Part shown: one piece after another, positions 37,213 through 55,523 of the stretch
How positions within the stretch are numbered: the first letter of the stretch is position 1
How the letters are laid out: the number at the start of each line of letters is the position of its first letter
NCBI GenBank assembly: GCA_963798915.1
Contig: CAWCVB010000005.1
Coordinates: 217,291 to 281,290, forward strand
Source of the DNA: an uncultured Gemmatimonadales bacterium
GTDB lineage: Bacteria > Gemmatimonadota > Gemmatimonadetes > Gemmatimonadales > GWC2-71-9
Direction: 5' to 3'
DNA: 64,000 nucleotides
Made by a program: the position numbers and the translations under genes
Notes under the pieces: model-generated
Databases searched by the model: none
Seen by the model: only the letters and a program-made list of their open reading frames with translations
Told to the model about the DNA's origin: nothing

Positions 37213-38258
37213 GGCACCAGTGGCGCCACCTCGGTGTAAACGGAGTCGAAGGCGAGCACCACCCTGGCATCGAGCTGCGAGCCCGACACCCGGCGCAGCT
37301 CGGCCAGGGCGTCGTCCGCGTCATAGGGAGCGCGGTAGGGACGCTGGGTCGTCATGGCATCGAAACTGTCGGCTACGGCAATGATGCGGGCCTCGATCGG
37401 TATGGCGTCGCCGCCCAGCCCGTCCGGAAAGCCCGCGCCGTCAACCCGTTCATGATGCGAGCGCACGCATCGGAGGACGGCGGGCGACTCGTGCGCAAGC
37501 GGCGCCAGCATCTGCTCGCCCAGCGCCGGATGCTCACGGATCTGACCCACCTCGTCTGGAGTCAGCGTGCCTGGCTTGAGCAGGAGCGACTCGCGCGTGC
37601 CAATCTTGCCGATATCATGGAGCTCACCACCAAGGCGAATGTGCTGCAGGTCGGCCCCATCGAAGCCCAGTTTGCGCGCGGTGGCCACAGCGTAACGGCT
37701 GACGCGAATCGAATGGCCGCGGGTGTAAGCATCCTTGGCTTCCAGGGCGCGGGCGAGCATCTGGACGCCCTGCAGGAAAATTTCCTGGATCCGATGGGAC
37801 TGGGTGTGGATGCGCTGCTCGAGGTATTCCTGGTAGTAGCGGTTCTGCAGGAACAGGGCGCGCTTTTCCAGGGCGCGCACGACCCGCGCCCGCAGTTCCC
37901 GGATCGATACCGGTTTGAGCAGGAAGTCGGCCGCGCCATAATGGAGACACTCGACGGCGGTGGCGCTGTCCGTGGCGCGGCTCAGGAGAATGACGGCGGT
38001 ATCAGGAGCGCAGCCGCGAACCTGGGTGAGGAGCTCGAACCCGTCCAGGTCCGGCATCCGGATATCGGCGATTACGAGCGGAAGCTCGGCATCGCGCTCG
38101 ATGCAGTCGAGTGCGTCCCGGCCGGTGGCGGCCTCCTGGCACGTGAAACCTTGTGCCGTCAGGAGGCACACCAGTGCCTGGCGTACCTCTGGATCGGGAT
38201 CTGCCACGAGGCAGCGCGCCGAACCGTCCGGGAGCGGTCCGGAAAACGATATGCTCAT
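37203..38258 (-). CDS. Response regulator REC plus HD-GYP cyclic-di-GMP phosphodiesterase
   Basis: ADIRMP, FLLKP; KDAYTRGHS.RV, LHDIGK, HHERVDGAGFP, AVADSFDAMT.RPYR. Confidence 0.92.
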   Translation of the reverse strand: MSISFSGPLPDGSARCLVADPDPEVRQALVCLLTAQGFTCQEAATGRDALDCIERDAELPLVIADIRMPDLDGFELLTQVRGCAPDTAVILLSRATDSATAVECLHYGAADFLLKPVSIRELRARVVRALEKRALFLQNRYYQEYLEQRIHTQSHRIQEIFLQGVQMLARALEAKDAYTRGHSIRVSRYAVATARKLGFDGADLQHIRLGGELHDIGKIGTRESLLLKPGTLTPDEVGQIREHPALGEQMLAPLAHESPAVLRCVRSHHERVDGAGFPDGLGGDAIPIEARIIAVADSFDAMTTQRPYRAPYDADDALAELRRVSGSQLDARVVLAFDSVYTEVAPLVPAL

Positions 38259-38315
38259 CTGGATTTCCCTGGCAAACGGAACCCACGAGGGCCGCAAGCC
38301 ATGTTAGGAACACGT

Positions 38316-38344: not shown

Positions 38345-38377
38345 CACTCGCTGCCTCAGGTCGGGGCCATTTCGCGC

Positions 38378-40980
38378 GTGACTCCACTCGTTTTTCACCT
38401 GCTGCCGCACACCCATTGGGACCGCGAGTGGTACGAGACCCGCGCCGGTTTCCTGGCGCGGCTCGTGCCCATGTTGGACCAGGCACTGGATCAGCTTGCC
38501 ATCGCCCCCGCCGTGACCTTTCTGCTGGACGGCCAGACCGTACTCCTGCGCGACTACCTGGCAGTCCGGCCAGGAGCCGGACCGAGCGTCGCCCGGATGG
38601 CCGAGCGCGGCCAGCTGCAGGTTGGTCCATGGTACATCCTCGCCGACGAGCTCATCCCCTCGGGAGAGTCGCTGGTCAGGAACCTGCTCCTTGGCCGGAG
38701 CGACGCAGCGGAGCTCGGCGGCGCGCTCGCGACACTCTACTCGCCGGATGCCTTCGGGCATCCCGGCACGCTGCCCATGCTGGCGCGCGAGTTTGGCCTT
38801 GGCGGTCTGGTGCTCTGGCGGGGCCGCGCCGGGCAGCACGATCTGTTCCGCTGGCAGGCTCCAGACGGGACCACGCTGCCAGTGTATCACCTTCCGCCCG
38901 AGGGCTATGAAGTGGCAGCCGGGCTGCCGGCCGATCCCGCTCGGCTCCGGGTGGTGTGGCCCGCGCTGCGGGCTCGGCTGGTCGCATCGAGCTACCTCGC
39001 GGCACGTCGCGCTCTTCATGGGTGCCGATCATCACGGCCTGCGCAACGACATCGAGGCCGTTGCCAGCTCGCTTCGGGTCTTGGAGCCCGCCGCAGAGGT
39101 GCGAATCTCCCGCCTGGATGACTTCTTGACGGTGGCGGCGGCCGAGGCTGAGATCAACGGAATCGCCGTGGAGAGCGGCGAGCTCCGGGCGGGATACGGC
39201 CACACCTGGTCGCTGCAGGGGGTGCATGGAACCCGTCTGCCACTGAAGCGGCTCAACAGTGCGACGGAATTGCTGCTGGAGCGGCTCGCCGAGCCGCTGG
39301 CATCGCTCGCGGCCATGGTCGCCGGCCGGCGCCGGGCGGGATCGGCCGCGCAACTGGCTGCTGCCTGGCGTTCGGTGCTGGAGTCACAGTTCCATGACAC
39401 CATCTGCGGGACCGTGAATGACGCCACGGCGAATGAAGCCGCAATGAGACTGGCGAATGCAGGCACACTGGGCCGCGCAGTACTGCGCACTAGCCTCGAG
39501 ACGCTCGGCGCTATTTCCGATGTCGCGGTCGCGATCCAACCTGACGCCGGCACCTTGGTCAGCTGGAACCCGCGGGTAACTGGTATCGGCGGTATCGGCA
39601 TCGTCGATATCACCCGCTTCCGAACCGACTTGCTGGTTGGTCCGCCCGACGGGCGGACCCCGCGGAAGGTGGAGCGGCACAGTGCCTTCTCGCTGCAGCT
39701 GCGGGATGGCACTCCGCTGGAAATGCAGGTGCTCGGCAGGCGGCTGGCGATCGAACGGATCGATTCCGCTGCACGGTATCCCGATGCCGACGTGGTTGAT
39801 CTGGTGCGCGTGGCCGTGGCCATGCCGCCGCAGCCCGGCCTCAGTCTCACGCAGGGCGGCATTCACTCGGCGGCGAGCCGCTCCAATCCGCGGTATCCCG
39901 TCACGGGCCGTGGACTGACGCTCGAGAATCACTGTCTCCGGGTTGCGGCCAATGAAGACGGCTCGCTCGATCTTTCCAGTCGGAACGGCGGCACGTTGTC
40001 CTCCAGCTTGAGCTGGGAGATCCAGGCAGACGCCGGGGATTGCTACACGGTGGGCCTGCGGGGTTCAGTCCGGCGCATCCACTGGCCCATGCAGTGGCGC
40101 CTCCTGGCCAGCGGCCCGCTGGTCGCCGCGCTGGAGGGGCGCGCCGAGGCGGATGAGCTCACGGTGCGGCTGCTGGTGGAGCTGCGGCGCGATGAGCCAT
40201 TCGTCCGCTGGCGCGGCGACCTCTGGAACGACGGGTGCGACCGCCGGCTCCGGCTCCAGGTTCCGGTCGGAGGCGCGCGCCAGGCGGTGGCCGGGTCGAC
40301 GTTTGGATTTGAGCGCCGTCCCGTTCCGATGGCTTCGCCAACTTGGCCCGGCGAGCAGTTCGTTTCGACCGCGCCAGCGCACCGTTTCGTGGCGGCTGCC
40401 GGTGGAATGGGAGGTGCAGCGCTCCTGGTGCCCGGATTCATGGAATACGAACTGAGTGACGACGGCAGCCTCCGGTTTACGGTGTTGCGCTCGGTGGGCG
40501 AACTTTCACGGGACGACCTGCCGGAGCGACCGGGCCATGCTGCCTGGCCCACCTCAGTGCCCGGCGCCCAGTGTCCCGCGGCGTCCTCCTGTCACCTGGC
40601 ACTCCTGCCATGCACCAGGGCGGAGGCCGAGGATCCCGTGCATCTGTTTGACGCGTGGGAGGCCGCCTTCCTGGGTCCGCAGTTGCGCTGGTTCCGGGGC
40701 CGCCAGGGATCCCCGTCGGCCGACGCTTCCATCGAGCTTGAGGGAGCAGGCCTGGTGGTCAGCGCCGTCAAGCCGGCCCAGGATGGTGATGGCGTCCATC
40801 TTGCGCGCCCTGAATCTCACCGATACAGCGGTGGAGGGATGCTGGCGCATACGTCCCGCCCCATCGCAGGCATGGCTGGTCCGGGCGGACGAGTCGCCGG
40901 TCGGTCCGCTCGCGATCGCCGGTGAGACGGTGCGCTTCCGGGCCGCCGCTCGTTCGCTCGTTTCCATCAGGTCGCAATGA
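38378..40980 (+). pseudogene. GH38 alpha-mannosidase-like glycoside hydrolase with two +1 frameshifts (near 38987 and 40797; probably sequencing errors)
   Basis: HTHWDREWY, LDGQT, GPWY..DE..SGESLVRNL, PDAFGH in frame 1; MGADH, QFHD.ICG, LRSVG in frame 2; VILRALN.. in frame 3; total length is 3n+2. Confidence 0.85.
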
Positions 40981-42074
40981 CACTACCAGCGGCAAGGCTT
41001 CGGTCCCTCGACGTGTTCCGGGGTCTGGCCATCGCCGGCATGATCCTGGTCAATAATCCGGGGAGCTGGAGCTACGTCTATCCACCGTTGGACCATGCGC
41101 CCTGGAATGGCTGGACGCCCACCGATCTGGTCTTTCCATTCTTTCTTTTTGCCGTCGGCGTGGCCATGACCTACTCGTTCCGTCGCCGGGCAGGCGAGGG
41201 TGCCACTCGAGCGGCACTCTTCCGGCGAATCGTCTGGCGTTCGCTGCTTCTGTTCGTGATCGGCCTGCTGCTCAACCTGATCCCGGGTTTCGATTTGCAT
41301 ACGCTGCGGATAATGGGAGTGCTGCAGCGCATTGCCGTTGTCTATTTCATCAGCGCAACACTGTTCCTGGTGTGCTCGCGCCGGGTCCTGGCGCTTGTTG
41401 GCGGTGCCCTGCTGATCGGCTATTGGCTGGCCATGACGCTGGTCCCGGTTCCCGGGTTCGGTGCCGGGGTGTTAGAGCCGGTGGGCAACCTGGCCCAGTT
41501 CATCGACAGTCACATTCTCGCCGGTCACATGTGGAAGCCAGAGTGGGATCCGGAAGGCCTGCTGAGCACGCTGCCCGCTGTAGTCACGAGCTTGCTGGGT
41601 GTCTACACCGGCCTCACCCTCCAGCGGGCCGAACTTCCGGCCGAGCGCACCAGCCGGGTGGCTGTGGCAGGATTCGTCGCGCTGTTGGCTGGCTGGATCT
41701 GGAACAGCTGGTTTCCCATCAACAAGAACCTCTGGACCAGCTCATACGTGCTGTTCACAGGCGGACTGGCCATGCTGACGCTGGCCACACTTTACTGGTG
41801 GATCGACGTGCGGCAGTACCGCCGCTGGAGCACGCCGCTCCGCGTGTATGGCGTGAACGCGCTGCTGGCCTTCGTGCTCTCGGGCCTGGTCGCCCGGTTG
41901 TTGAACGTATGGAACATTGATCACGAGCCTGCCCGAGGCTGGATGTATCGGCACCTCTTTGCCCAGTGGGCGGGCTCGATGAACGGTTCACTGTTCTTCG
42001 CGATGGCCTACGTGGTCTTCTGGTATGCCGTCCTGCTGGTGCTCGACAAGCGGGGATGGAACGTCCGATTGTGA
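40977..42074 (+). CDS. Heparan-alpha-glucosaminide N-acetyltransferase-like membrane protein (HGSNAT/NagX)
   Basis: RL.SLDVFRG..MILVNNPG, HA.W.G.T.TDLVFPFFLF, GVLQRI, DPEG.LST, PINKNLWTSSY. Confidence 0.9.
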   Translation: MTLPAARLRSLDVFRGLAIAGMILVNNPGSWSYVYPPLDHAPWNGWTPTDLVFPFFLFAVGVAMTYSFRRRAGEGATRAALFRRIVWRSLLLFVIGLLLNLIPGFDLHTLRIMGVLQRIAVVYFISATLFLVCSRRVLALVGGALLIGYWLAMTLVPVPGFGAGVLEPVGNLAQFIDSHILAGHMWKPEWDPEGLLSTLPAVVTSLLGVYTGLTLQRAELPAERTSRVAVAGFVALLAGWIWNSWFPINKNLWTSSYVLFTGGLAMLTLATLYWWIDVRQYRRWSTPLRVYGVNALLAFVLSGLVARLLNVWNIDHEPARGWMYRHLFAQWAGSMNGSLFFAMAYVVFWYAVLLVLDKRGWNVRL

Positions 42075-42097
42075 CCAGCCTCGCCAGGCTGGCGGCG

Positions 42098-42943
42098 TCA
42101 GCCGCGGCGCGTCGGGTCGAGCGCATCCTGCAGTGCGTCACCCAGCAGGGTGGACGCCAGGACCACCAGCACGAGCGCCACGCCGGGCGCGAGTGCCACC
42201 CACGGCGCATTCACGAGCGTGTCACGCCCGGAGGCGATCATCGTGCCCCACGATGAGGCGGGAGGTTGGACGCCGACGCCAAGGAAGGAGAGCCCCGCCT
42301 CGAGCATGATGGCGTTGCCAAATCCGAGTGCTGCCGCGACCAGCGCCGGAGTGAGCACGTTGGGGATCACGTGCCGCATGAGCAGGCGGAGCCGGTTCCC
42401 ACCCAGCGCTCTCGCGCTATCAATAAACGGCCGGGCCATGATCGAACGCGCCTCGCCAAAGACCAGTCGTGCGACGCTCATCCACCCGGTGACGCCCAGG
42501 ACAATCACTACCAGCGCGGCACTCGGCTGCCAGAGCGCGGCAAGCAGGAGGAGGAGCACCACGCGGGGCAGGGCCAGGGCGAAGTCCGTGGCGGCGAGCA
42601 GGCCGGTGCGCACTACGCCGCGGGAGGCGCCGGCGATGGCGCCGATCGAGACGCCGAGCAGCGAAGAAATGAGTACGGCCAGCGCCCCGACCGTGAGCGA
42701 CAGGCGAGCACCATAGAGCAGGCGAGCCCAGACATCCCGGCCCAGCCGGTCGGTGCCAAGCAAATGATAGATGCCTCGAAAGTCGGTGGAGCCCGGCCCC
42801 AGAAACCGGGTGGCGACCACGTCAGTCGTGGTATCGGGCCCGATGCTGGTGACCATAGGCGCCGCCACGGCCAGCGTGATAATGGCGCCCAGGATCAGTG
42901 CGCCTGCGAAAGCGCGGCCGTCCCGTCTCCTGCGGCCCATCAT
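42098..42943 (-). CDS. Peptide/nickel ABC transporter permease (DppC/OppC)
   Basis: LLGTDRLGRDV..RL.YGAR.SL; EAA-loop FIDSARALG; EAGLSFLG.G..PP.SWG. Confidence 0.92.
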   Translation of the reverse strand: MMGRRRRDGRAFAGALILGAIITLAVAAPMVTSIGPDTTTDVVATRFLGPGSTDFRGIYHLLGTDRLGRDVWARLLYGARLSLTVGALAVLISSLLGVSIGAIAGASRGVVRTGLLAATDFALALPRVVLLLLLAALWQPSAALVVIVLGVTGWMSVARLVFGEARSIMARPFIDSARALGGNRLRLLMRHVIPNVLTPALVAAALGFGNAIMLEAGLSFLGVGVQPPASSWGTMIASGRDTLVNAPWVALAPGVALVLVVLASTLLGDALQDALDPTRRG

Positions 42944-43911
42944 CGGGCGTGTCCCCGAAGCCGCGGATCGGTCCATGCCGCGAGCCACTCGGCCAGCAGA
43001 TTGCCCACGACGACCAGTGTTGCGATGATCGCCGTGGAGGCCATGACGACCGGATAGTCGCGCGCCTGGACAGCGCCCACCAGGACCCGGCCCACTCCGG
43101 GCCATGCGAAGATAGCTTCGACGAACACCGCGCCGGAGAACAGGGCCGGCAGCGAAAGGCCGAGCAGCGTCACCACCGGGACGAGCGCGTTCCGAAGCAC
43201 ATGATGGAAGCGGATGCGACGCCTCGAGATGCCCTTTGCAGCGGCGACCGTGACGAACGCTTCGCCCTGAATGTCGAGCATCGCGGCGCGGACAAATCGC
43301 GCGGTGCCCGCGAGCCCGATCAGGGTGAGGGTGCAGAGTGGCAAGAGCAGGTGCCGGAGTGCGTCGAGAATCCGGGCTCCCGGCGCCAGGAAATCTGCAT
43401 CGAGTCCGGTGGCCCCGAAGGCGGGCAGCCAGCGCAGCGCGTAGGCGAACAGCATGATGAGCATGAGCCCGAGCCAGTAGCTGGGCATCGCGAACAGGGT
43501 GACCGTCAAGATGGAGAGGCCGGTGTCCACGGACGAGCGGTTGTGCGCCGCCTGCACCGCGCCGATGGCGATGCCGAGCAGGTAGCTCAAGAGCAGCGAC
43601 AGTCCGGCCAGCTCCACGGTGCGCGGCCATGCGCGGCCGATCATCCGGCGGACCGGCTCGCCCGTCGCGATGGAGCGGCCCCAGTCGCCGCGCACGAACG
43701 CCGCGGCCCAGCGGCCCAGCTGCGCCGGAAGCGGCTGGTCCAGTCCCAGCGCCCGACGCTGCGCTGCAACCTGTCCCGGAGCCGCGTCGGGTCCGAGAAG
43801 TCGCCGCACCGGGTCGCCCGGAGCCGCGTGGAGCAGGATAAACGTCAGCACCAGGACCCCGCCAATCACGGCGGCACCACGAGCCAGGCGGACCAGCATG
43901 GATGCCAGCAT
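42940..43911 (-). CDS. Peptide/nickel ABC transporter permease (DppB/OppB)
   Basis: APGDP, GLDQP, GDWGRS, AKG, RNAL.P, E.IFAWPG.G, RDYP. Confidence 0.92.
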   Translation of the reverse strand: MLASMLVRLARGAAVIGGVLVLTFILLHAAPGDPVRRLLGPDAAPGQVAAQRRALGLDQPLPAQLGRWAAAFVRGDWGRSIATGEPVRRMIGRAWPRTVELAGLSLLLSYLLGIAIGAVQAAHNRSSVDTGLSILTVTLFAMPSYWLGLMLIMLFAYALRWLPAFGATGLDADFLAPGARILDALRHLLLPLCTLTLIGLAGTARFVRAAMLDIQGEAFVTVAAAKGISRRRIRFHHVLRNALVPVVTLLGLSLPALFSGAVFVEAIFAWPGVGRVLVGAVQARDYPVVMASTAIIATLVVVGNLLAEWLAAWTDPRLRGHAR

Positions 43912-43927
43912 GGGCCTATTCTACCGC
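43912..43927. promoter_or_regulatory. Overlapping bidirectional -10 elements driving two leaderless genes
   Basis: TATTCT (+, 43917-22) lies 5 nt before ATG 43928; TAGAAT (-, 43923-18) lies 6 nt before ATG 43911; no room for an RBS. Confidence 0.55.
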
Positions 43928-45361
43928 ATGATGGAAGCACGAAACAGGCGGAAGGCCTGGGTGGTAATTTTGGCCCTCGCCGGGTGCACCCCGTCCGCGT
44001 CCCGGCGCGGCGCCACCGTGATGTTCGCATCCGGGGCCGACCTGCAGAGTATCAATCCCCTGCTCACGCCGCATCCGCTGGCGCACCAGGTGCAGCGCTA
44101 TGTGCTCTTCACCACCCTCGTCCGGCGCGACTCCCTCATGCAGATGCGGCCCTACCTCGCGCGCGCCTGGCACTGGTCAGCCGGCCGGCGAGAGCTCACG
44201 TTCACCCTGCATTCCGATGTCCGCTGGCATGACGGCGCGCCGACCACTGCCCGCGATGCTGCATGGACACTGGAGGCCGCCTGCGACAGCGTCACGGGAT
44301 TCCCGCGCTACCAGGAGCTCCGGAACCTCAAGGCGGTTCGCGCGACCAACGACAGCACGCTCGTGCTCACCTTCGGCGATGCGCAGTCCGCCATACCTGA
44401 CGTGCTGAGCGACCTGGCGATCCTGCCGGTACATCTGCTGGGCCGGGTGCCGCACGCCGCGCTTCGATCTGCCCAGTTCAACGAGCACCCGGTGGGCAAC
44501 GGGCCTTTTCGCTTTGTCTCCCACGAGGCCAATCGTCGCTGGGTGTTTCGCCGGAATGCGGACTTCCCGGCGTCACTCGGCGGCCCGCCGAAGCTCGATC
44601 GGTTCATCGTGGTTGTCGTGGATGAGCCCGCGACCAAGTTGGCGGCACTCACATCAGGCGAGCTCGATTTCGCCGGCATTCAGCCGGCGCATGCCTCCTT
44701 CGTCCGGCGAAATCCTGACCTGGCGGTCGTCACCTACCCGCTGCTCTTCACCTATGGGATCGTGCTGAATACCCGGCATGCGCCGTTCGACGACCTGCAC
44801 GTGCGCCAGCGGCTCTCGAACGCACTCGATCGCACGGAGATCGTGAATGGCTACCTGTTCGGCTTCGGGACGCCTGCGTGGGGACCGGTCCCGCCAGGCT
44901 TGCCGGGTGCGTTGGCACCGCCCGCTGAGGCAGAGGGCAGCGCGGTTCCTGCCGCGGCGGGCAGGATATCGTTCGAGCTGCTGACGGTCGGGTCTGGTGA
45001 AGCGGCCCTGGAGCAGCTGGTACAGGCACAGCTGGCGAGGGCCGGATTCGACGTTCATATCCGCCAGATGGAGCTGTCCGCCTTTCTCGATCGAGTCCAT
45101 GGCGCTGATCATGAGTTCGATGCCGCAGTCCTCGGCGTCGCCGGCGATCCTGGGCTCGGCTACCTTGCCCCGTTGCTCGAATTGAGCGGACTCGCCTCGA
45201 GCGGCGGCGCTGAGCAGCAGCAGCGTACATTTGCTCAGGAGATTCCCGTCGCGTTTCTCTATCACGCACGAGGCCTGCAGGGTATGAACCGCCGGGTACA
45301 TCACGTGACCATGGATCTCCGCGGCGAGCTGCCGACTGTGGCGCAGTGGACGGCCCAGTGA
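43928..45361 (+). CDS. ABC transporter substrate-binding lipoprotein, family 5 (peptide/oligosaccharide)
   Basis: Lipobox LAGC; PYLA..W, F.L...VRWHDG.P.TA.D, PVGNGPF. Confidence 0.9.
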   Translation: MMEARNRRKAWVVILALAGCTPSASRRGATVMFASGADLQSINPLLTPHPLAHQVQRYVLFTTLVRRDSLMQMRPYLARAWHWSAGRRELTFTLHSDVRWHDGAPTTARDAAWTLEAACDSVTGFPRYQELRNLKAVRATNDSTLVLTFGDAQSAIPDVLSDLAILPVHLLGRVPHAALRSAQFNEHPVGNGPFRFVSHEANRRWVFRRNADFPASLGGPPKLDRFIVVVVDEPATKLAALTSGELDFAGIQPAHASFVRRNPDLAVVTYPLLFTYGIVLNTRHAPFDDLHVRQRLSNALDRTEIVNGYLFGFGTPAWGPVPPGLPGALAPPAEAEGSAVPAAAGRISFELLTVGSGEAALEQLVQAQLARAGFDVHIRQMELSAFLDRVHGADHEFDAAVLGVAGDPGLGYLAPLLELSGLASSGGAEQQQRTFAQEIPVAFLYHARGLQGMNRRVHHVTMDLRGELPTVAQWTAQ

Positions 45362-46341
45362 CGGTGCGCCGCGCGCACGCGGCGGCACCCGTGCGTCTGG
45401 ACCTCGCCGGTGCGTGGACTGACGTGCCCCCGTTCTCGGAGCGAGAAGGCGGGGCCATCGTCGCCGTGGCCATCGACCTCAAGGTGCATGTCAATGTCCT
45501 TCCCGGCGGCCACATCGTGCAGCTGATTGCGGAGGACCTGGGCGTGCACGAGCAGATGGGCGATGCTCCCTCCAGCGTGCCCGTCCTTTCTCATGCGGTG
45601 CGGCGCCTGCCGGTCGGCGGCGCCACCATCATCTCGCGAAGCGATGCGCCCCCCGGCTCGGGGCTGGGCACCAGCGGCGCGCTCGGGGTCGCCGCCATCG
45701 CTGCGCTGCACCATGCACGGGGCGATGAGATCTCACCCGCTCGCGCAGCGCAGGAAGCATGGGAAGTCGAAACCAGGGACGCAGCGATTCCTGGCGGACG
45801 CCAGGACCAGTGGATGGCCGCTCTCGGCGGTTTTCGCTATCTCGAATTCTGCGATCCGGACATCCGGACCGAGCCGCTCGCGCTCGACGCGGCCTTCGTG
45901 ACGGAGCTGCAAGAGGCGATGGTGCTCTGCTACACGGGCGTGTCCCGAGTTTCCGGCAGCACCATCGCCCGGGTGATGGCAAGATATGAGGCGGGCGATG
46001 CCGAGGTGACCGATGCGTTGCGCGGCCTGCGGCAGCTGGCTGACGAAATGACCGCTGCGCTGCGCGCCGGCTCCATCGGGGAAGTCGCTGCCATCCTGAA
46101 CCGCAACTGGCAGTTGCAGCAGCGGCTCGACCCGGCGATGTGTACACAGGAGATGGCCACGCTCGAGCGTGCGGCTGCAGCCCATGGTGCACTGGGTGGA
46201 AAGGCAGCCGGCTCGGGCGCCGGTGGATGCATGTTCTTCGTGGCGCCCGGCTGCCGCGATGCCGTGGAGGCCGCGGCACGCGATGCCGGTGCGACAATTC
46301 TCAAAGTGCAGTGGGCACGGGAGGGTGTCACCACGTGGTAA
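45358..46341 (+). CDS. GHMP-family sugar kinase (HddA/fucokinase-like)
   Basis: APVRLDLAGAWTD, PPGSGLGTSG, GGRQDQ, GGK..GSGAGG. Confidence 0.88.
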   Translation: MTVRRAHAAAPVRLDLAGAWTDVPPFSEREGGAIVAVAIDLKVHVNVLPGGHIVQLIAEDLGVHEQMGDAPSSVPVLSHAVRRLPVGGATIISRSDAPPGSGLGTSGALGVAAIAALHHARGDEISPARAAQEAWEVETRDAAIPGGRQDQWMAALGGFRYLEFCDPDIRTEPLALDAAFVTELQEAMVLCYTGVSRVSGSTIARVMARYEAGDAEVTDALRGLRQLADEMTAALRAGSIGEVAAILNRNWQLQQRLDPAMCTQEMATLERAAAAHGALGGKAAGSGAGGCMFFVAPGCRDAVEAAARDAGATILKVQWAREGVTTW

Positions 46342-49049: not shown

Positions 49050-50212
49050 ACGATCACCTGCCCGGGTTCACGTCGACGGGAAGCAAGCGGCCTGAATCGC
49101 TGTATGGCTCGGCCCATCCTGCGGGCGTTCCGCTGCGCATGCGTTCGGCGGCGGGATGCCGGGTGTCAGGCGAGGATGGTCGTGAGTATCTCGATTTCAT
49201 CATGGGATTAGGGGCCGTGGCCCTGGGCTACGCGCACCCCGCTGTCACCACGGCCATCCAGCGAGCGGCCGCCGAAGGCGTGGTGGGTCCACTCTCGCCG
49301 GTGCTCGAGGAGCAGGTTGCTGCGCATCTGGGGCGGATCATGCCGTGGGCTGAGCAGGTGCGGTTTCTGAAGACCGGGGCCGAGGCAGTTGCCGCCGCGA
49401 TTCGGCTGGCCCGGAGCTTCAGCGGGCGCTCGCGGGTGTTGGGCTGCGGCTACCATGGATGGCTTGACGGTACCCAGGTGGCGGGCACGCAAGGCGTGCC
49501 GCCGGAGATCACCTCATGCTTTTCCGTGCTGCCCTTCAACGACCCGGACGCGGCGGCGCGTGAGGTACGGCTCGCGGGCGACGCCCTGGCCGCCGTCATT
49601 GTCGAGCCGGTCATCGAAGAGCCTCCCTCGGTCGAGTGGCTGGCTACCCTCCGCCGTGAAACGCGACAGGTGGGCGCGCTGCTCATCTTCGATGAGATCA
49701 AGACGGTCGGGCGTGTCGCGCTGGATGGGGCCGCGGGGCGCTGGGGTGGCGAGCCGGATCTGGTGGTGCTCGGCAAGGCCATCGCGAACGGAATGCCGCT
49801 GGCCGCGGTTGCCGGTCGGCGGGACGTGATGGCCGAGGCGACGCGCACCTGGATCAGTTCGACCCTTGCGACCGAGTTTGTCTCGCTCGCAGCGGCCGAA
49901 GCCACGTTGCTCGAGCTGGAACGCCAGTCTGTGCCCGCTCACCTCCAGCGCGTCGGCACGCTGCTGCTGGATGGACTGCACCGGCTGGCTGACCGATATC
50001 CTGCTGCCCTGCGCCGGGCGGTCGGGCTGCCGGAAATGTGCTTCCTGGAGTTCGTGACCGGGGACCACGGCCGGGACATTGTGGCCGGCTGCGCCCGCCA
50101 GGGCGTACTCTTCAAGCGTTCAGCTTACAACTTCGTGTCCCTCGCACACGACGAGCGCGCCGTTGCCGGCGCGCTCGACATATTGGACTCCGTGGTGCAG
50201 GGCGTCTGCTAA
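49046..50212 (+). CDS. Class III PLP aminotransferase (GSA-aminomutase-like)
   Basis: YLDF.MG.G...LGYAHP, KTGAEA, YHGW, IFDEIKT, GKAIANGMP, SST. Confidence 0.88.
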   Translation: MNDHLPGFTSTGSKRPESLYGSAHPAGVPLRMRSAAGCRVSGEDGREYLDFIMGLGAVALGYAHPAVTTAIQRAAAEGVVGPLSPVLEEQVAAHLGRIMPWAEQVRFLKTGAEAVAAAIRLARSFSGRSRVLGCGYHGWLDGTQVAGTQGVPPEITSCFSVLPFNDPDAAAREVRLAGDALAAVIVEPVIEEPPSVEWLATLRRETRQVGALLIFDEIKTVGRVALDGAAGRWGGEPDLVVLGKAIANGMPLAAVAGRRDVMAEATRTWISSTLATEFVSLAAAEATLLELERQSVPAHLQRVGTLLLDGLHRLADRYPAALRRAVGLPEMCFLEFVTGDHGRDIVAGCARQGVLFKRSAYNFVSLAHDERAVAGALDILDSVVQGVC

Positions 50213-50709
50213 CGGGATCCGGGCGATGGCTGGCCACCACCGGCGCGTCCCCGGCGTTCCTGCCTCTGCCGCTCGGTTTCGCCCTTCTCCCACGCGTCAT
50301 ACTTGGTCTTCTGCTCGGGCGTGAGCAGGGCGGACACGCCCTCATCGAACGTCTGGGCCGCCTGTTGCAAGGAGGCCATCTGAGCCCGCGAGCCCTGCAT
50401 CATTTCTCTCGCCTGGTCCCGGTTGCCGGCCTGCATGGCTTCCCTGGCCTTGGCTCGCGTACTGGCGAGGCTGTCGCGCATGGCCTTGGTGGCCTGCAGG
50501 TGGCTGGCGCGAAGCTTGGTGTACTTGGCCGATTGATCGGCATTGAGGCCGAGCGCTTTGGTGAGCACGTCGGCGGTGGGGGGAGCTGCCGTGACATAGG
50601 GACTCATGCCGGCCATCCGGCCCATGCCAGGCCCGGTGCCGGCTTGGGCCGCAAGGGCGGCCGGTGCGAGCAGGGCCAGGAATGCGAACTGCAGGGAACG
50701 CGTCTTCAT
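50209..50709 (-). CDS. Spy/CpxP-like periplasmic helical protein (LTxxQ)
   Basis: Signal peptide; LGLNADQ and LLTPEQK motifs; GGAGG RBS. Confidence 0.75.
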   Translation of the reverse strand: MKTRSLQFAFLALLAPAALAAQAGTGPGMGRMAGMSPYVTAAPPTADVLTKALGLNADQSAKYTKLRASHLQATKAMRDSLASTRAKAREAMQAGNRDQAREMMQGSRAQMASLQQAAQTFDEGVSALLTPEQKTKYDAWEKGETERQRQERRGRAGGGQPSPGSR

Positions 50710-50822
50710 GCTGATGCCTCCAAGGGGTTCGTGCGGGCTCACTGTCGGGCCCGGTTGAGATACGCGCGAGGGCTGGACGGCGTTGACTCGACAGCGGCAC
50801 CCGGCCGCGTCATCTTCCGCCT

Positions 50823-51623
50823 GTGCTGATCGACGTCCACGTCCACTTCCTCCACGCTCGTTCGCCCCGGGCCGACTGGCGCGAACGCAACGCAAGCCGC
50901 CTGCGGGCTGCTGAACGCATCGGGATCACCTGGCAGGTCTCGTCTGTGCTGGGGTCCTGGGGCGCTCGCTCGCCCATCTACTTCCCGTCGCCCGCGGACG
51001 TCACCCTCGCCAACGAGATCCAGCGTGAGATTGTGTCCCAGTATCCGGACCGGGTGCGGGGCTATGCCGTGGTCAATCCCAACTTTACGGAGCATGCGCT
51101 CCAGGAAATTGAGCGGGGGAGGCATGGTGGCATGATCGGGGTCAAGCTTGCCGCCAGCCGGCGCGCCGATGACGACCTGCTGGATCCGGTCTGCGTTGCG
51201 GCTGAGGACCACGGCTTTCCCGTGCTGCAACATGTGTGGCAGCACCGGCGCCAGGATTTTCCGGGTCAGGAGGCGTCGGACGCGGTGGAACTGTGTGCGC
51301 TTGCACGGCGGCATCCGCGCGTCGCCTTTATCCTGGCGCATATTGGCGGCGGCGGCGACTGGCTCCATTCGCTTCGAGCCGTGCGGAGAGCCGAGAACGT
51401 ATTCGTAGATCTTTCGGGCAGTGGGGTCGATGGCGGCATGCTGGAGCAGTGTATTCACGCAGTCGGCGTCGGGCGGCTGCTGTGGGGTACCGATCTCACC
51501 ATCGGGACAGGCCTGGCCAAGCTGCGATATCTGGAGCGGCAACTCGACGCAGCAGCGCTGGACCAGGTGCGCTGGCGCAACGCCGCATCCATCTTCCCGG
51601 CTGGCAGCTTTCCGGAGCGCTAA
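50823..51623 (+). CDS. Amidohydrolase (amidohydro_2 TIM barrel)
   Basis: IDVHVH, GVKL, LQH, LAHIGGG, LWGTD. Confidence 0.9.
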   Translation: MLIDVHVHFLHARSPRADWRERNASRLRAAERIGITWQVSSVLGSWGARSPIYFPSPADVTLANEIQREIVSQYPDRVRGYAVVNPNFTEHALQEIERGRHGGMIGVKLAASRRADDDLLDPVCVAAEDHGFPVLQHVWQHRRQDFPGQEASDAVELCALARRHPRVAFILAHIGGGGDWLHSLRAVRRAENVFVDLSGSGVDGGMLEQCIHAVGVGRLLWGTDLTIGTGLAKLRYLERQLDAAALDQVRWRNAASIFPAGSFPER

Positions 51624-52402
51624 TGCGAATCGACGTCAACGCTTCGCTTGGTTCCTACCCTTGGCGCCGGGTTCCGGGCACCTCCGCCGAGGCACTCAGC
51701 ACGAGCATGGATCGCACCGGTATCGACGAGGCCTGGGTGTTCCACCTCCCCGGTCTGACCTGGCGGGATCCGATGGAGGGCAACGCCTGGCTGCTCGATG
51801 CGTGCCGTCAGAACGCTCGCTTCGCGCCGGTGCCAGCCGTCCATGCGGGCTTGCCCGGGTGGGCCGATCACCTCAAGCAGCTCGCATCAGACGGCGTGCA
51901 GGCCGTGCGTGCCGATCCCACCTGCTATGGACTCGCGCCAGCCGGAACGGAAATGCGCGCGCTGGTTCGCGAATGCGCGAGACTCGACGTGGTGCTGATG
52001 CTCGCGGTCCGCTTCGAGGACGGCCGCCAGCGCCACCCGCTCGATCACGCGGGAGAATTGCCGGCCGCGGCGGTGCGTTCCCTGATCCGGGAGGACGATA
52101 GCGCCCGTCTGGTGGTGACCCACGCCGACCGGAGCTACATCGAGGAAGTGCATTTCGGCTCCACGCCGGACCAGTCACGGCGCATCTGGTGGGACATCTC
52201 CTGGATCTGGGGACCGCCGGAGGATCACCTCGAGATTCTGCTGGAGACGGTTGGCGCCACTCGCTTCCTCTTCGGCACCGGACAGCCGCTGCGGCTGCCT
52301 GAGACGCCCATCGCGCGGCTGGACCTGCTCGACATCGCCATGGCCGACCGGGCTCTGATCGAATCGGGGAATGCGCTGTCGCTGCTGGGCCGTGGCAGGT
52401 GA
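51623..52402 (+). CDS. Amidohydrolase-fold paralog lacking the HxH metal motif
   Basis: IDVNAS replaces HxH; ED.RQRH; LFGTG; SGNA; TAATG coupling to the upstream gene. Confidence 0.75.
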   Translation: MRIDVNASLGSYPWRRVPGTSAEALSTSMDRTGIDEAWVFHLPGLTWRDPMEGNAWLLDACRQNARFAPVPAVHAGLPGWADHLKQLASDGVQAVRADPTCYGLAPAGTEMRALVRECARLDVVLMLAVRFEDGRQRHPLDHAGELPAAAVRSLIREDDSARLVVTHADRSYIEEVHFGSTPDQSRRIWWDISWIWGPPEDHLEILLETVGATRFLFGTGQPLRLPETPIARLDLLDIAMADRALIESGNALSLLGRGR

Positions 52403-53280
52403 GTGCGCTGCAGGAGCGGCTGCGCGACGGGGTTGTGGCCGCGGTTCCCGTCCCCTGCCAGGGCCGCGAGATCGACCAGCGTGCCCAACGCCGATATGCG
52501 GAAAGCATGGCGGCGGAGCCATTGGCCGGCGTCGCGGTCTGGGCCCATACCGGCCGTGGACGGCACCTGTCCGCTGAGCAGCGCCGCTGCGTGCTCGAGA
52601 CGTGGCGGGAAGTGCTGGCGGGGAAGATCATTGTCGCCGGGGCCTATGATACCGGCACGGCCATCGATGCCCGCCGGCGCGGCGCCGATGCGCTGCTGAT
52701 CCATCCCAGCGCCGACGACACGATCCGCTACCACGAGCGGCTCAGCCGTGAGCTGCCCGGCATCGTGTTCTGGCTGTACGAGGCCGCAGGCGGCGTGCCG
52801 TACGACGACGCGACGTTGCACCGACTCCTCGAGCTTCCGCAGATCATCGGGATCAAGATCGCGACGCTCGACTCGGTCATGACCTACCAGCATCTCGTCT
52901 CGCTGGCCCGTCAGCACCCCGACCGTCTGATCCTCACTGGTGAGGATCGCTTCCTGGGCTACTCCGTCATGATGGGCGCCGACGGTGCGTTGATCGGCAT
53001 GGCCTCGGCGGTTCCAGCCCTGGCCACGTCGCTGTTCCACGCCCGAAACCAGGAGGATCCGGCCCGCTTCCTCGCCTTGACCCGGGCGGCGGACGCCTTC
53101 GGCATGGCCACCTTCGCCGAGCCGATGGAGGGCTACATCCGCCGGATGCTCTGGGCCGCCGCCACCGAGGGGCGGCTGCCCCTGGCCGCGTGCGATGACC
53201 CGTGGGGGCCGACGCTACCCGAGACCGAGATCGCTGCTGTGGCGCTGGCGGTGCGGGATGCGCAGTCGGCTCTCCGCTGA
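52399..53280 (+). CDS. Dihydrodipicolinate synthase/NAL-family aldolase or dehydratase
   Basis: AVPVP, HTG, GADALL.HP, LY, IGIK (Schiff-base Lys), TGED, GADGALIG. Confidence 0.85.
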   Translation: MSALQERLRDGVVAAVPVPCQGREIDQRAQRRYAESMAAEPLAGVAVWAHTGRGRHLSAEQRRCVLETWREVLAGKIIVAGAYDTGTAIDARRRGADALLIHPSADDTIRYHERLSRELPGIVFWLYEAAGGVPYDDATLHRLLELPQIIGIKIATLDSVMTYQHLVSLARQHPDRLILTGEDRFLGYSVMMGADGALIGMASAVPALATSLFHARNQEDPARFLALTRAADAFGMATFAEPMEGYIRRMLWAAATEGRLPLAACDDPWGPTLPETEIAAVALAVRDAQSALR

Positions 53281-54403
53281 TTTTGACCGGTTCGGCCGGG
53301 AGCTGCCGCGCGAATGGGCGTCGCATGTGCGCGAGCACCACCGGATCGACTTGAGTGCCTCCTATCTGGGCGAGGCGCTTCCGCATCCGCTGGGCAAGGC
53401 CTCGGGGCAGTTGTCCCTGAATTCCCGCCAGCTGGAGCAGGACCAGGAAGCCGGCCTTGCGTTCATCGTGCTGAAGACCGTGATCGGTGAGCGTCCCGAT
53501 GGAACGCGCCGCATGCAGGCGTGGGCCACCGGTGAGACGCGCATGACGGTCGAGCAGCGGGTCGAACCCGATGGCCGGAAGGGCTGGACGGTGACGTGGA
53601 AGGGACGAGGATGGTCCGGCTCGCTCGACAGCTACGCTGCCCTGCTGCGGGAAGGGCGAGGAATGACGCATGCGGGCGGACCACTGATCGTGCCATCCGT
53701 CAAGCTTCATCTTCCTGCCAGGGGTGAAGCATTCGACAGGGGGGAGTATCGTCACACGCTGGCAGTGCTGCAGCATGCCTGGGGAGAAGGTCCGCTGCTG
53801 CTGGAGAAAGACTTCTCGCCCACACTTGCAGGCGATTCCCGTTCGGAGGAACAGCAGACTGTCCTCCGCTGGGTCAGGGAGGTGCCCGGTATTTTCCGGG
53901 CAGCGGCCGCCGGCCCGGTGCGACTCTCGCTCAAGCTGATGAATGCCCGGTTCGGCGATGCGTTCCAGGTGCAGATGATGCAAGCGGCACGGGAAGCTGC
54001 GGGTGTGACGGTGTTCAATCGCCTCTGGAGCGAGGAACGGCAGGTCGCCTACGGCGGCTGGGCCCTTTCGGATCGCAATCTTCGGGTGCTGGACCTGGCG
54101 GGCCCCGGAGGGCCAACGCGTTGCGGCACCGGGAACATCTGTTCAGGGCGGCAAGTGGCCGCTTACGCGCGCCGGGGCTGCCAGTCAGTACAGTTGCACA
54201 CCTTCTTTCAGCTCCCGCTGTCGGCCTATCCGGCACGAGCCGGCAGCCGGACGCAGCGCGCGGTTCACGCGCTGGTCTTCCATCCGGAAACTGGCTTGAT
54301 CGCCGCGCTGCTCGACGCGGAGGAGGCGGGACTGCTGGCGCGTCGGGATGGGCTGCTGCACTTCAGTGACTTTTGTGGTCCGACCGGCAGCCATGAAGAT
54401 TGA
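53258..54403 (+). CDS. Dihydroorotate/dihydropyrimidine dehydrogenase-like FMN TIM-barrel protein
   Basis: YLG..L.HP.GKASG, IVLKTV, LKL, VFN, GTGNI.SG, SVQL follow the DHODH/PreA fold order; distant match. Confidence 0.55.
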   Translation: MRSRLSADFDRFGRELPREWASHVREHHRIDLSASYLGEALPHPLGKASGQLSLNSRQLEQDQEAGLAFIVLKTVIGERPDGTRRMQAWATGETRMTVEQRVEPDGRKGWTVTWKGRGWSGSLDSYAALLREGRGMTHAGGPLIVPSVKLHLPARGEAFDRGEYRHTLAVLQHAWGEGPLLLEKDFSPTLAGDSRSEEQQTVLRWVREVPGIFRAAAAGPVRLSLKLMNARFGDAFQVQMMQAAREAAGVTVFNRLWSEERQVAYGGWALSDRNLRVLDLAGPGGPTRCGTGNICSGRQVAAYARRGCQSVQLHTFFQLPLSAYPARAGSRTQRAVHALVFHPETGLIAALLDAEEAGLLARRDGLLHFSDFCGPTGSHED

Positions 54404-55523
54404 CCGCGTCGAGCTGTATCAGCTGACACTACCGCTCGCCGAACCATTTGTCATCTCGGGTGGCAGCATGCTGCAGCGCGAATCGCTCCTGGTCCGACTC
54501 TGTTCGCCGACGGGCGCTGAAGGCTGGGGAGAGTGCCCGCCGTTCGCCCTGCCGTTCTACTCCGAGGAGACGCTCGGCTCCGCCCAGGTCATGCTCGAGC
54601 GGATCCTGCTCGGTCGGGTCGAAGGACAGGAATTCGCCACGCCAGCCGCGGTGCACGACGCGCTCGTCCTCAACGTGCGAGGCAACCCGTTTGCGAGAGC
54701 GGCGATCGAGACGGCGGCATGGGATCTCGTTGCCGACGAGCATCGGTCCAGCCTGGTGCAGCTGCTCGGCCAGGCACTCGACGCCACGCCGAAGAGTGCC
54801 GTGCCGTGCGGGGTGGCGCTCGGTATTCCGGCATCGGGCGAGCTGGATGCGCTGCGGATGCAGGTCCTGGAGGCGCTCGACACCGGGTATCGCCGGGTGA
54901 AGATCAAGATCAGGCCCGGATGGGACACCACCCCCGTGCGCGCGGTGGCGGCACTCCTGGCTGGAACCGGCGTACCACTCACGGTGGATGCGAACGGCGC
55001 CTACCCATGGCCGGCCGGTCTCGACAGCTTGCGTGCACTCGACGAATTCGGGCTCCTGTATATCGAACAGCCACTTGCCCCCGACGAGTTGCTCGGCCAC
55101 GCGGAGCTCGGCCGGGCGCTGACCACGCCGATCTGTGTGGACGAAACACTGACGAGCGTTCGCGTGGCGCGCCAACTGGTCGAACTGGGCGGCCCCAGCA
55201 TCTGGAACATCAAGGTGCACCGGGTCGGAGGCCTCACGGAGGCTGGCCGGATCTGGCAGGTGGGCCGGCAGCACGGCATCAGTCTGTGGGCCGGCACCAT
55301 GCCCGAGTCCGGGATAGGCAGCCAGGCCCCGCTGGCGCTGGCGGCACTTCCGGGCTTTGACCTGCCATCCGATCTCGAGCCGAGTGCGCGCTGGTTCGGG
55401 CGCAACCAGGACGTCATCAAGCTGGTGATGAGCGGCGACGGCCTGATGACGGTTCCGCGGACCTCCATCGGCCGCCTGATCGACCGGAAACGGCTTGGGG
55501 CTGCAACCCGTCGGCTGCGCTGA
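54393..55523 (+). CDS. o-succinylbenzoate synthase / N-acylamino acid racemase (enolase superfamily)
   Basis: GWGE...P.YSEET, RVKIKI, VDAN, IEQP, DE, NIK.RVGG, WAG.M.ESGIG, PSD. Confidence 0.88.
   Translation: MKIDRVELYQLTLPLAEPFVISGGSMLQRESLLVRLCSPTGAEGWGECPPFALPFYSEETLGSAQVMLERILLGRVEGQEFATPAAVHDALVLNVRGNPFARAAIETAAWDLVADEHRSSLVQLLGQALDATPKSAVPCGVALGIPASGELDALRMQVLEALDTGYRRVKIKIRPGWDTTPVRAVAALLAGTGVPLTVDANGAYPWPAGLDSLRALDEFGLLYIEQPLAPDELLGHAELGRALTTPICVDETLTSVRVARQLVELGGPSIWNIKVHRVGGLTEAGRIWQVGRQHGISLWAGTMPESGIGSQAPLALAALPGFDLPSDLEPSARWFGRNQDVIKLVMSGDGLMTVPRTSIGRLIDRKRLGAATRRLR

Follow-up and report, generated by a model that had tools for sequence, protein, structure and literature searches.

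The gene cluster described here lies at positions 38,378 to 55,523 of a 64,000-nucleotide stretch of DNA (hereafter the window), which spans 217,291 to 281,290 on contig CAWCVB010000005.1 (C5) of an uncultured Gemmatimonadales bacterium. It is a real, conserved locus, probably for the utilisation of glycans or glycoconjugates, that brings together several orphan enzyme families, in a combination that matches no described pathway we found. Our favoured reading, to which we give a little better than an even chance, is that its genes would form one functionally linked catabolic route, transcribed as several units, for an imported acidic, mannose-containing glycoconjugate. A core made up of a GH38 alpha-mannosidase, two ATP-binding cassette (ABC) permeases, a solute-binding lipoprotein (SBP), a PL17-like (lyase-like) protein, an enzyme of the aminotransferase fold and a pair of PF04909 proteins is kept across three families of the order, and an HddA-like sugar kinase also belongs to the core in most lineages. 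An accessory module (a DapA-like protein, a protein of the DPD/DHODH fold and an enolase-superfamily enzyme) occurs, among the Gemmatimonadota examined, only in genomes that bear the core; the exception, L158, lies elsewhere. Judged by their catalytic motifs (the Asn/Tyr of the PL17-like protein, the Lys and Asp for pyridoxal phosphate (PLP), the metal ligands, the Schiff-base Lys and the enolase set), the products look like functional enzymes.

The Gemmatimonadales are abundant in soil and mostly uncultured, with little of their carbon metabolism assigned, and roughly half of the genomes sampled from the order have the locus. It unites a divergent PL17-like protein, a very rare DPD/DHODH-fold family, a PF04909 pair with one catalytic and one degenerate member, and an OSBS/NSAR enzyme that is not the menaquinone one; finding the substrate would give functions to several orphan families at once.

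The source assembly (GCA_963798915.1) has 3.3 Mb in 17 contigs, is 84.8% complete and has 65-69% G+C. Gene models were set from codon-position G+C, Pfam and NCBIfam matches and junction sequences. The same two databases recovered, at about the predicted positions, all the enzyme families named in an original prediction for this DNA, and by database naming the protein relatives of the window are proteins of Gemmatimonadales metagenome-assembled genomes (MAGs). The features, with the matches that identify them, are as follows.

37203..38297, minus strand: response regulator with REC and HD_5 (HD-GYP-type) domains, divergent from the GH38 gene (Pfam HD_5 7e-36, Response_reg 2e-23)
38378..40925, plus strand: GH38 alpha-mannosidase, MngB-like (PF01074 3e-23 in the first frame, PF09261 2e-11 in the second frame)
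40977..42074, plus strand: NagX/DUF5009-like polytopic membrane protein, HGSNAT-like (NF046061 1.4e-56; PF16401 23.5 bits)
42098..42943, minus strand: OppC/DppC-type ABC permease, permC (BPD_transp_1 1e-24; NF045476 2.6e-68)
42940..43911, minus strand: OppB/DppB-type ABC permease, permB (BPD_transp_1 1.5e-38; NF045470 1e-80)
43928..45361, plus strand: family-5 solute-binding lipoprotein, SBP (SBP_bac_5 2e-64; lipobox LALAGC)
45346..46341, plus strand: GHMP sugar kinase of the HddA/WcbL/fucokinase branch (GHMP_kinases_N and _C; NF049969 8.5e-38)
46335..49049, plus strand: PL17-like (heparinase II/III-type) protein, 904 residues, cytoplasmic (PF07940 1.2e-9; PL17 profile match 3e-26)
49046..50212, plus strand: class III PLP aminotransferase-fold enzyme, like glutamate-1-semialdehyde (GSA) aminomutase, 388 residues (PF00202 3e-48)
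50209..50709, minus strand: small secreted LTXXQ/Metal_resist protein, Spy/CpxP-like (Pfam 3.5e-7; signal peptide)
50823..51623, plus strand: Amidohydrolase_2 protein 1 (PF04909 9e-22; metal site intact)
51623..52402, plus strand: Amidohydrolase_2 protein 2, a degenerate paralogue (PF04909 26.0 bits vs cut-off 26.4)
52399..53280, plus strand: divergent DapA/NAL-family class I aldolase-type enzyme, accessory module (PF00701 2e-11)
53258..54403, plus strand: DPD/DHODH-fold TIM-barrel protein, accessory module (predicted fold, Foldseek 8e-14)
54393..55523, plus strand: NSAR/OSBS-family enolase-superfamily enzyme, accessory module (TIGR01928 238 bits vs cut-off 200.65)

The genes had been predicted to form a single, tightly coupled 17-kb unit, a picture that gave way to one of at least four transcription units, because the permease genes and the LTXXQ gene on the minus strand split the plus-strand genes. 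The tight overlaps do hold inside two plus-strand runs. In the first, as read from the sequence, the SBP and kinase genes overlap by 16 nucleotides, the kinase and lyase-like genes meet at GTGGTAA and the lyase-like and aminotransferase genes at ATGA; in the second, the two amidohydrolase genes join at TAATG and amidohydrolase 2 and the DapA-like gene at GTGA, followed by overlaps of 23 nucleotides (DapA-like/DHODH-like) and 11 nucleotides (DHODH-like/enolase). The permC gene shares an ATGA overlap with the permB stop codon, and the permease genes diverge from the SBP gene across a gap of 16 nucleotides. A GTGA overlap predicted at the start of the GH38 gene did not survive: the plus-strand open reading frame (ORF) that would supply it (37158-38381) is spurious, having no family match and an odd composition and lying antisense to the response-regulator gene at 37203-38297. 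A second plus-strand ORF, 50038-50829, was likewise rejected as a gene.

Conservation of the locus across the Gemmatimonadales

Conservation of the gene neighbourhood had been proposed as a check on the original prediction, and both gene order and presence or absence proved to be co-conserved across genomes. In a set of 20 loci from three families of the order, obtained by tblastn of the window's proteins against the loci of relatives, the same layout recurs: GH38, divergent permeases, SBP, (GHMP kinase), lyase-like gene, aminotransferase and two PF04909 genes. The aminotransferase gene comes after the lyase-like gene in 19 of the 20 (L021 is the exception), both PF04909 genes follow in 18, and each of the 14 loci long enough to include GH38 has it.

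A wider scan, with one genome per species, yielded at least 590 stretches that encode relatives of the lyase-like protein. The best 80 of these were analysed further; every one has a MAG title of the Gemmatimonadales, Gemmatimonadaceae, Gemmatimonadota or Gemmatimonadetes type, and neither a cultured carrier nor a member of another phylum is among them. When each gene is counted only in loci with sufficient flank, the aminotransferase is found in 70/70, the GHMP kinase in 76/77, the SBP in 66/67, permB in 62/63 and permC in 57/58; the figures for the genes further on are 51/61 for amidohydrolase 1, 50/61 for amidohydrolase 2, 46/59 for the DapA-like, 42/55 for the DHODH-like and 41/54 for the enolase gene. 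The order SBP-kinase-lyase-aminotransferase is nearly invariant in these 80 MAG loci, and where later genes are missed this mostly coincides with an insertion after the aminotransferase gene, behind which, in genomes G087 and G065, the later genes resume. The position of GH38 is more mobile. Among 32 loci with 9 kb or more of coverage to either side, 14 have it upstream, 17 have it downstream, behind the enolase gene, and 1 lacks it. Inherited synteny alone can hardly account for a gene that stays in the locus while switching ends.

With respect to presence and absence, we examined 150 other Gemmatimonadota genomes that are at least 90% complete, a sample that includes the unpublished G082, positive for every marker. 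The lyase-like gene and amidohydrolase 1 are both present in 75 of them and both absent from 74; only G108 has the amidohydrolase alone. Orthologues of the lyase-like gene are distributed over family f1 (55/74), family f2 (18/31) and family f3 (2/2), with none in the other families of the 150 genomes, where the remaining matches are partial (E 8e-11 to 5e-4); ten genera of f1 lacked every marker. The 70 genomes with a GH38 orthologue and the 34 with the DHODH-like gene all fall among the 75 that are positive for the lyase-like gene. In some genomes the two halves of the locus are 5-10 kb apart or on separate contigs and they still co-occur. The kinase gene adjoins the lyase-like gene in f1 and f3; in f2 its best matches are 34-41% identical and lie elsewhere in the genome. 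An empty site was also sought in the genomes that lack the cluster, where the flanking DUF58 and membrane-protein genes are not conserved; the regions in G130 and G067 share no flanks.

The importer and the enzymes of the locus

The protein first described as a cytoplasmic heparinase is a distant PL17-like protein and a predicted lyase. As a single sequence it matches solved structures only marginally (PL17 at E 0.003), and NCBIfam gives a weak oligoalginate lyase match (1e-5); a profile of 18 orthologues finds the PL17 alginate lyases at 3e-26, over two matched stretches, and heparinase III at 2e-5. Relatives of the protein also carry PF05426, and its N-terminus, as read, has no signal peptide. 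N200 and Y252 are invariant in the family and align with Asn201 and Tyr258 of Alg17c, whose N201 and H202 we take to be a catalytic Asn-His pair and whose Y258 we take to be the catalytic Tyr; the GHGH...D...AHN motifs are kept as well. At residues ~50-80 there is an invariant N-terminal motif, CPxDG...FDPWSP..HRCPRCG (C54, C73 and C76), that from its sequence may bind zinc. No PL17 chain among the matches listed aligned over this Cys motif or over the C-terminal CBM9-like domain. ESM Atlas clusters that share this architecture (score 0.99) come most often from Gemmatimonadota, a ranking based on few phylum-assigned members.

What had been predicted as a family-5 ABC importer is present as far as the SBP and two Opp-type permeases are concerned, but no ABC ATPase gene was found in the region, so that a complete Opp importer (SBP, two permeases and two ATPases at one locus) is not encoded there. 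The best PDB match of the SBP is 8efz (7e-27). The only OppD/F-type (oligo_HPY) pair in the 84.8%-complete genome, at C5:397866-399022, belongs to a separate and complete opp operon (C5:397866-403558, L033) some 117 kb downstream on the same contig, and presumably the permeases of the locus borrow OppDF ATPases encoded elsewhere. This separate operon adjoins a PhzF-family gene and is near an M55 D-aminopeptidase gene.

The GH38 protein (NF007331 3e-44 and 6e-28) has no signal peptide. Its gene is read in two frames, that of 38378 for the N-terminal domain and that of 38622 for the middle domain, with a switch in the frame plot near 38,900; the two translations meet at "...LRARLVA" / "ATSRHVALFMGADHH". 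Compared with L048, L049 and L051, all of which have the gene in a single frame, there is one extra base at ~38,975-38,990, so both domains are present here but not as one polypeptide, while the gene is intact in relatives. The extra base could be either a real mutation, making this a pseudogene, or an error of assembly. In L061, L089, L107 and L123 the lyase-like gene is broken in two in the same manner, and since three of these four loci sit on contigs longer than 1 Mb, indel errors in such long-contig assemblies are plausible. The adjoining NagX-like gene had been counted as part of the pathway, but it is a genus-level accessory: it was seen only in L013, L014 and L032 of the 20-locus set and in L048, L049 and L107 of the 80-locus set, the closest relatives. 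Its product is below the cut-offs of both models that match it (NF046061, 192.2 bits vs 480; DUF5009, PF16401, 23.5 vs 25).

The GHMP kinase has the motif PPGSGLGTSGA and is nearest, in both NCBIfam and the PDB (3k85 7e-40, 4n3o 2e-32), to heptose-7-phosphate 1-kinases and fucokinase, which makes it likely to be an anomeric kinase. The aminotransferase-fold enzyme keeps the PLP residues D216 and K244 and matches GSA aminomutase (3e-42) and a C-6' sugar aminotransferase (3.5e-34) in the PDB. With 388 residues it is shorter than the solved GSA aminomutase chains listed (411-438), and it scores only 186.8 bits against the HemL model TIGR00713, whose cut-off is 527.3. No protein in the 84.8%-complete genome exceeds that cut-off; the second-best match to the model is a paralogue at C2:680638-681522 (164.6 bits).

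The two PF04909 proteins had been put down as deacylases. In amidohydrolase 1 the metal ligands H6, H8, H137, H173 and D224 are invariant in 17/17 sequences; a single-sequence PDB search found 3cjp only, and the AlphaFold2 model (pLDDT 89.7) gave gamma-resorcylate decarboxylase, ACMSD, LigW and LigJ as the top Foldseek matches (E 6e-14). Because the nearest folds are decarboxylases and hydratases, deacylation is not the default assignment. Amidohydrolase 2 has D-V-N-A in place of the HxH and falls just below the PF04909 cut-off; it found no match in a single-sequence PDB search, and hhalign relates it to amidohydrolase 1 at a probability of 96.5% and 18% identity. It is possibly the partner of amidohydrolase 1.

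In the accessory module, the DapA-like protein (PF00701, 43.4 bits vs a cut-off of 22.1; best PDB match 4xky, 1e-11) has K153, in GIKIATLD, and Y127 invariant in 6/6 sequences, which we take to correspond to the Schiff-base K161 and to Y133 of DapA. Against the DapA model TIGR00674 it reaches 33.6 bits, with a cut-off of 206.15, and a better DapA candidate is encoded at C14:184574-185401 (164.2 bits). The next protein had been called a DHODH/PreA-like flavoprotein. A DPD/DHODH fold is indeed predicted by its AlphaFold2 model (pLDDT 81.3), in which Foldseek recovers the flavin mononucleotide (FMN) domain of DPD and class 1 DHODH (8e-14, probability 1.00, TM 0.55-0.58, 14-17% identity), but family-level sequence matches are lacking: there is no Pfam match at E<=1, PF01180 included, the NCBIfam match to PRK07565 is 3e-4 (19.7 bits vs 303) and that of a profile to the PDB E 0.34, and the loop DFSPTLAGD does not correspond to the catalytic Cys/Ser loop. 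The family appears very small, with 316 relatives (E<=0.001) in 1.84 billion representative proteins, one of which is named by NCBI as a Bacteroidota MAG protein.

The enolase-superfamily enzyme matches 3mwc (5e-78) and the NAAAR structures (1e-66 to 1e-70) in the PDB and keeps the whole catalytic set, K170xK172, D199, E225, D250 and K274; we take K170xK172 and K274 to supply the two NSAR catalytic lysines and D199, E225 and D250 to be the metal triad. It is the only TIGR01928 match over the cut-off in the genome, in which neither MenB (146.7 vs 342.7 bits) nor MenD (40.5 vs 244.2) exceeds its cut-off and two MqnA/D-type (VitK2_biosynth) genes do; menaquinone would accordingly be made by the futalosine route, and the enolase is not a housekeeping MenC. 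The possibility that the prediction itself had raised, that its enzymes might be housekeeping orthologues, thus fails for HemL, DapA and MenC alike.

The proposed route, its substrate and the alternatives

In the single route that we favour, the lipoprotein would bind a small acidic glycoconjugate, perhaps a glycopeptide, and the two permeases would import it with borrowed OppDF ATPases. In the cytoplasm the PL17-like enzyme would strip a uronic acid of a 4-O-linked substituent by beta-elimination, GH38 would cleave an alpha-mannoside and the GHMP kinase would phosphorylate, at C1, a released sugar of the manno type. The sugar acid (unsaturated or keto-deoxy), or an amino-sugar acid, could then pass to the metal-dependent PF04909 enzyme with its degenerate partner, acting as a hydratase, decarboxylase or hydrolase, and to the PLP enzyme. 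Where they are present, a pyruvate-type Schiff-base lyase, the DPD/DHODH-fold enzyme and an OSBS/NSAR-type dehydratase or racemase would act too; in some lineages a DAO-family flavoenzyme may be added to the accessory enzymes or replace them. A link to amino sugars comes from L130 and L131 (metagenome contigs of 52-53% G+C), in which a DapA-like/DHODH-like pair is followed by genes for a GNAT protein, a NagB-family protein and a sodium:solute symporter, a context that resembles that of amino-sugar acids; both contigs (the stretch in L131 is 467-6352) belong to another lineage, and the pair is 43-48% identical to the window's two proteins.

Several observations weigh against such a route. The evidence comes from one order, its relatives are not independent of one another, and adjacent genes can go in a single deletion. 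The predicted lyase activity is unproven: the homology extends across both domains, but the position of the catalytic His202 of Alg17c is R201 in the lyase-like family. The locus contains no GH88/GH105, 4-deoxy-L-erythro-5-hexoseulose uronate (DEH) reductase, KdgK or Eda gene, and GH38 is frameshifted in this genome. The four or more transcription units are interspersed with opposite-strand genes, in 23 of the 80 loci a SpoU-family methyltransferase gene parts the lyase-like gene from the aminotransferase gene, and an 8.7-kb cassette follows the aminotransferase gene in 9-10 of the 80; lastly, the DapA-like/DHODH-like/enolase trio occurs without the core in L158, which is from another lineage.

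Two or more unrelated functions could instead be kept side by side by inherited synteny and be lost in the same deletions, one half serving glycan uptake and cleavage (GH38, permeases, SBP, kinase and PL17-like protein) and the other being an amino-acid or organic-acid unit (aminotransferase, PF04909 pair, DapA-like, DHODH-like and enolase proteins). The SpoU gene or large insertions do part these halves in many loci, as a minus-strand gene does in the window; moreover, G108 has amidohydrolase 1 with no match to the lyase-like gene, the trio stands alone in L158 and its first two members have a different context in L130 and L131. Yet 75 of the 76 genomes with either marker have both, the halves co-occur even on different contigs, and the aminotransferase gene follows the lyase-like gene in every one of the 70 informative loci, often with an ATGA-type overlap; where GH38 lies behind the enolase gene (17 of 32 loci), the second half is enclosed by the first. 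We consider this explanation unlikely, if still deserving of some weight. Far less probable, indeed barely credible, is a conventional locus for the use of oligo-alginate or oligo-uronides, centred on an exolytic PL17 lyase. The best solved relatives of the lyase-like protein are certainly PL17 alginate lyases, with the weak NCBIfam match in the same direction, but the single-sequence match is marginal, the catalytic His has become Arg and the Cys motif and CBM9-like domain are unaligned to the PL17 chains among the matches listed; alginate breakdown has no role for GH38, the kinase, the aminotransferase or the PF04909 pair, and the genes usually found downstream are not in the locus.

It is also conceivable, though rather improbable, that the locus serves not nutrition but the recycling of the cell's own envelope or protein glycans, the turnover products being re-imported and their sugars re-activated by the anomeric kinase. 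HddA-type kinases normally feed nucleotide-sugar synthesis, all of the enzymes appear from their N-termini to be cytoplasmic, most loci have no TonB receptor (one was seen, in L031), and the O-glycans of Gemmatimonas contain mannose (Man), glucuronic acid (GlcA), N-acetylglucosamine (GlcNAc) and rhamnose (Rha) (PMC8849296). On the other hand, searches did not find the locus in roughly half of the genomes sampled from the order, which would be unusual for a housekeeping route, it includes no nucleotidyltransferase gene, and the adjoining genes for secreted and lipoprotein peptidases suit scavenging equally well. Reductive pyrimidine or hydantoin catabolism was considered as well and rejected: the DPD-fold gene is present in 34 of the 75 carriers only, and amidohydrolase 1 is of the ACMSD type and not dihydropyrimidinase-like.

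As the original prediction had anticipated, literature searches found no characterised pathway with this enzyme combination, nor anything relevant on lyase clusters of Gemmatimonadota, and the known systems that come closest each resemble only part of the locus. The PL17 oligoalginate lyases (Alg17c of Saccharophagus degradans, 4nei/4ojz; AlgL17, 9irq) are alike at the profile level, in the N-terminal and Hepar_II_III_C parts, and the absence of a signal peptide here is as expected of an exolytic enzyme acting on imported oligomers; the lyase-like protein is, however, ~170 residues longer, with the extra Cys motif and CBM9-like domain, and its gene context is wholly different. The importer shares with the Opp/Dpp systems (the Thermotoga mannoside-binding protein 4pfu; AgaA, 6hlx) a family-5 SBP and two Opp-type permeases, and the solved relatives include sugar- and opine-binding members, but all matches are distant (none better than that to 8efz), the SBP and permease genes are divergent and dedicated ATPase genes are missing.

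For the later steps the nearest system is the oxidative hexuronate pathway of Agrobacterium tumefaciens (Udh, Gli, Gci, KdgD and alpha-ketoglutaric semialdehyde (alpha-KGSA) dehydrogenase), whose cycloisomerase presumably belongs to the enolase superfamily and whose KdgD presumably belongs to the DapA family. There a uronate-derived acid is processed in turn by an isomerase of the amidohydrolase superfamily, by a cycloisomerase and by the dehydratase KdgD (PMC6353982). Our locus differs in having neither Udh nor KGSA dehydrogenase, in a DapA-like protein that reaches only 19.7 bits vs the KdgD cut-off of 278, in an enolase of the NSAR/OSBS type and not Gci, and in the addition of the PLP enzyme and the DPD/DHODH-fold protein. 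The enolase itself resembles the NSAR/OSBS family (Amycolatopsis 1sja, Thermus 2zc8, Deinococcus 1r0m) in its TIGR01928 score, its PDB matches (1e-66 to 1e-70) and its catalytic set; it differs in being confined to a subset of carriers, in a genome with the futalosine route and no MenB or MenD over the cut-off. The succinyltransferase and desuccinylase that we take to be the partners of NSAR in Geobacillus are absent here. With the sialic-acid (Nan) clusters the likeness is that of a NAL/DapA-family lyase accompanied, in L130 and L131, by a symporter, a NagB-family protein and an acetyltransferase, whereas the DapA-like protein matches the NanA model only at 1.6e-7, there is no NanK or NanE, and the DHODH-fold partner has no Nan counterpart. 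Hydroxyproline catabolism, with its epimerase, DAO-type dehydrogenase and DapA-family deaminase, follows a logic similar to that of the accessory module.

The original prediction had a glycopeptide or an N-acylated sugar acid as substrate, and such a substrate is made more plausible by the peptidase genes beside some of the loci and by a published O-glycan of Gemmatimonas. In the cryo-electron microscopy structure of the G. phototrophica photosystem, O-glycans are attached to Thr108 of the cytochrome subunit and Ser331 of the reaction-centre subunit RC-M (PMC8849296). The glycan modelled there, its sugars assigned by map fit, has an alpha-Man that carries alpha-1,2 GlcA (2,3-di-O-acetylated) and alpha-1,4 Rha, and the GlcA in turn bears an alpha-GlcNAc at O4 (PMC8849296). 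The O-glycans of Bacteroidota have in common a reducing-end trisaccharide of mannose, rhamnose and glucuronic acid, for which the part of the review available to us names no breakdown route (PMC12871550), and the parts of the literature consulted on these Man/GlcA/Rha O-glycans yielded no catabolic route.

The enzyme set would fit a glycopeptide of the Gemmatimonas type, a suggestion that we offer as speculation. Opp-type uptake would suit the peptide stub, the lyase the 4-O-substituted GlcA, GH38 the alpha-mannoside, an esterase the O-acetyl groups, the HGSNAT-like protein glucosamine (GlcN) or GlcNAc, and the anomeric kinase the released sugar. Neighbouring secreted or lipoprotein peptidases would trim the glycoproteins and the Opp-type system would import the stub; the new PL17-like subfamily would eliminate the alpha-1,4-GlcNAc, or another 4-O substituent, from GlcA; the PF04909 enzyme, replacing GH88, would hydrate the unsaturated uronate; the MngB-like GH38 would free mannose from Ser/Thr or from a small acidic aglycone; and the PLP, DapA-like, DPD-fold and NSAR-like enzymes would dismantle the remaining amino-sugar or keto-deoxy acid. 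That the locus is a pathway for bacterial glycopeptides of this O-mannose type, with the Man/GlcA/Rha core common to Bacteroidota and Gemmatimonas, seems to us doubtful as it stands; if true, it would reveal how bacterial protein O-glycans turn over in soil.

Insertions and neighbouring genes

The 8.7-kb cassette lies between the aminotransferase and amidohydrolase 1 genes (L040:7498-15015 in G087; L038 in G065). Its genes encode a HAMP histidine kinase, a sigma-54 response regulator, a PqqC/TENA-like protein, a radical SAM/SPASM protein and an ABC-2 exporter, and it looks like a small peptide-maturation unit. Examples of the SpoU gene are L022:11604-12389, L030:7434-8180 and L040:16399-17208; the copies of G017 and G087 are 59% identical, and the G087 copy has no match in the window's genome.

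Peptidase-type neighbours include a secreted M1 peptidase in the window, a trypsin-like protease in L022 and an M19 dipeptidase in L035, and in L031 an S9 peptidase gene accompanies the TonB receptor gene beside the locus. In 22 of the 80 loci a ~740-residue lipoprotein with the metzincin motif HExxHxxGxxH adjoins permC, a count given with no background comparison. This lipoprotein (e.g. L034:4413-6656) reads HEWGHNWGRQH at the motif and has Ig-like repeats (CARDB in some); it is found in loci where GH38 has moved to the far end, with a DUF6438 gene next in the annotated copies. A small carboxylesterase-type alpha/beta hydrolase is encoded in 19 of the 80 loci and the DAO-family flavoenzyme in 5. 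The DAO gene separates the DapA-like gene from the DHODH-like gene in 3 of these 5, and likewise in G087 and G065; it comes after amidohydrolase 2 in L017 and L019. RidA is encoded in L019, L118 and L053.

In the window, the LTXXQ gene is an insertion outside the pathway, being present only in the closest relatives (L013 and L014; L048 and L060), with a gap of ~170 nucleotides at this place in other members of the genus. Whether the response-regulator gene at the other end belongs to the locus is uncertain; the REC and HD_5 domain pair also occurs beside GH38 in L027. After the enolase gene, positions 55624-58222 encode a polytopic membrane protein with no Pfam match and then a Na+/H+ exchanger. 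The same two genes are 3' of the enolase gene in those loci of closer relatives that reach that far, and in other lineages alternative complex III genes (cytochrome c7-like, molybdopterin/iron-sulfur and NrfD) are there instead.

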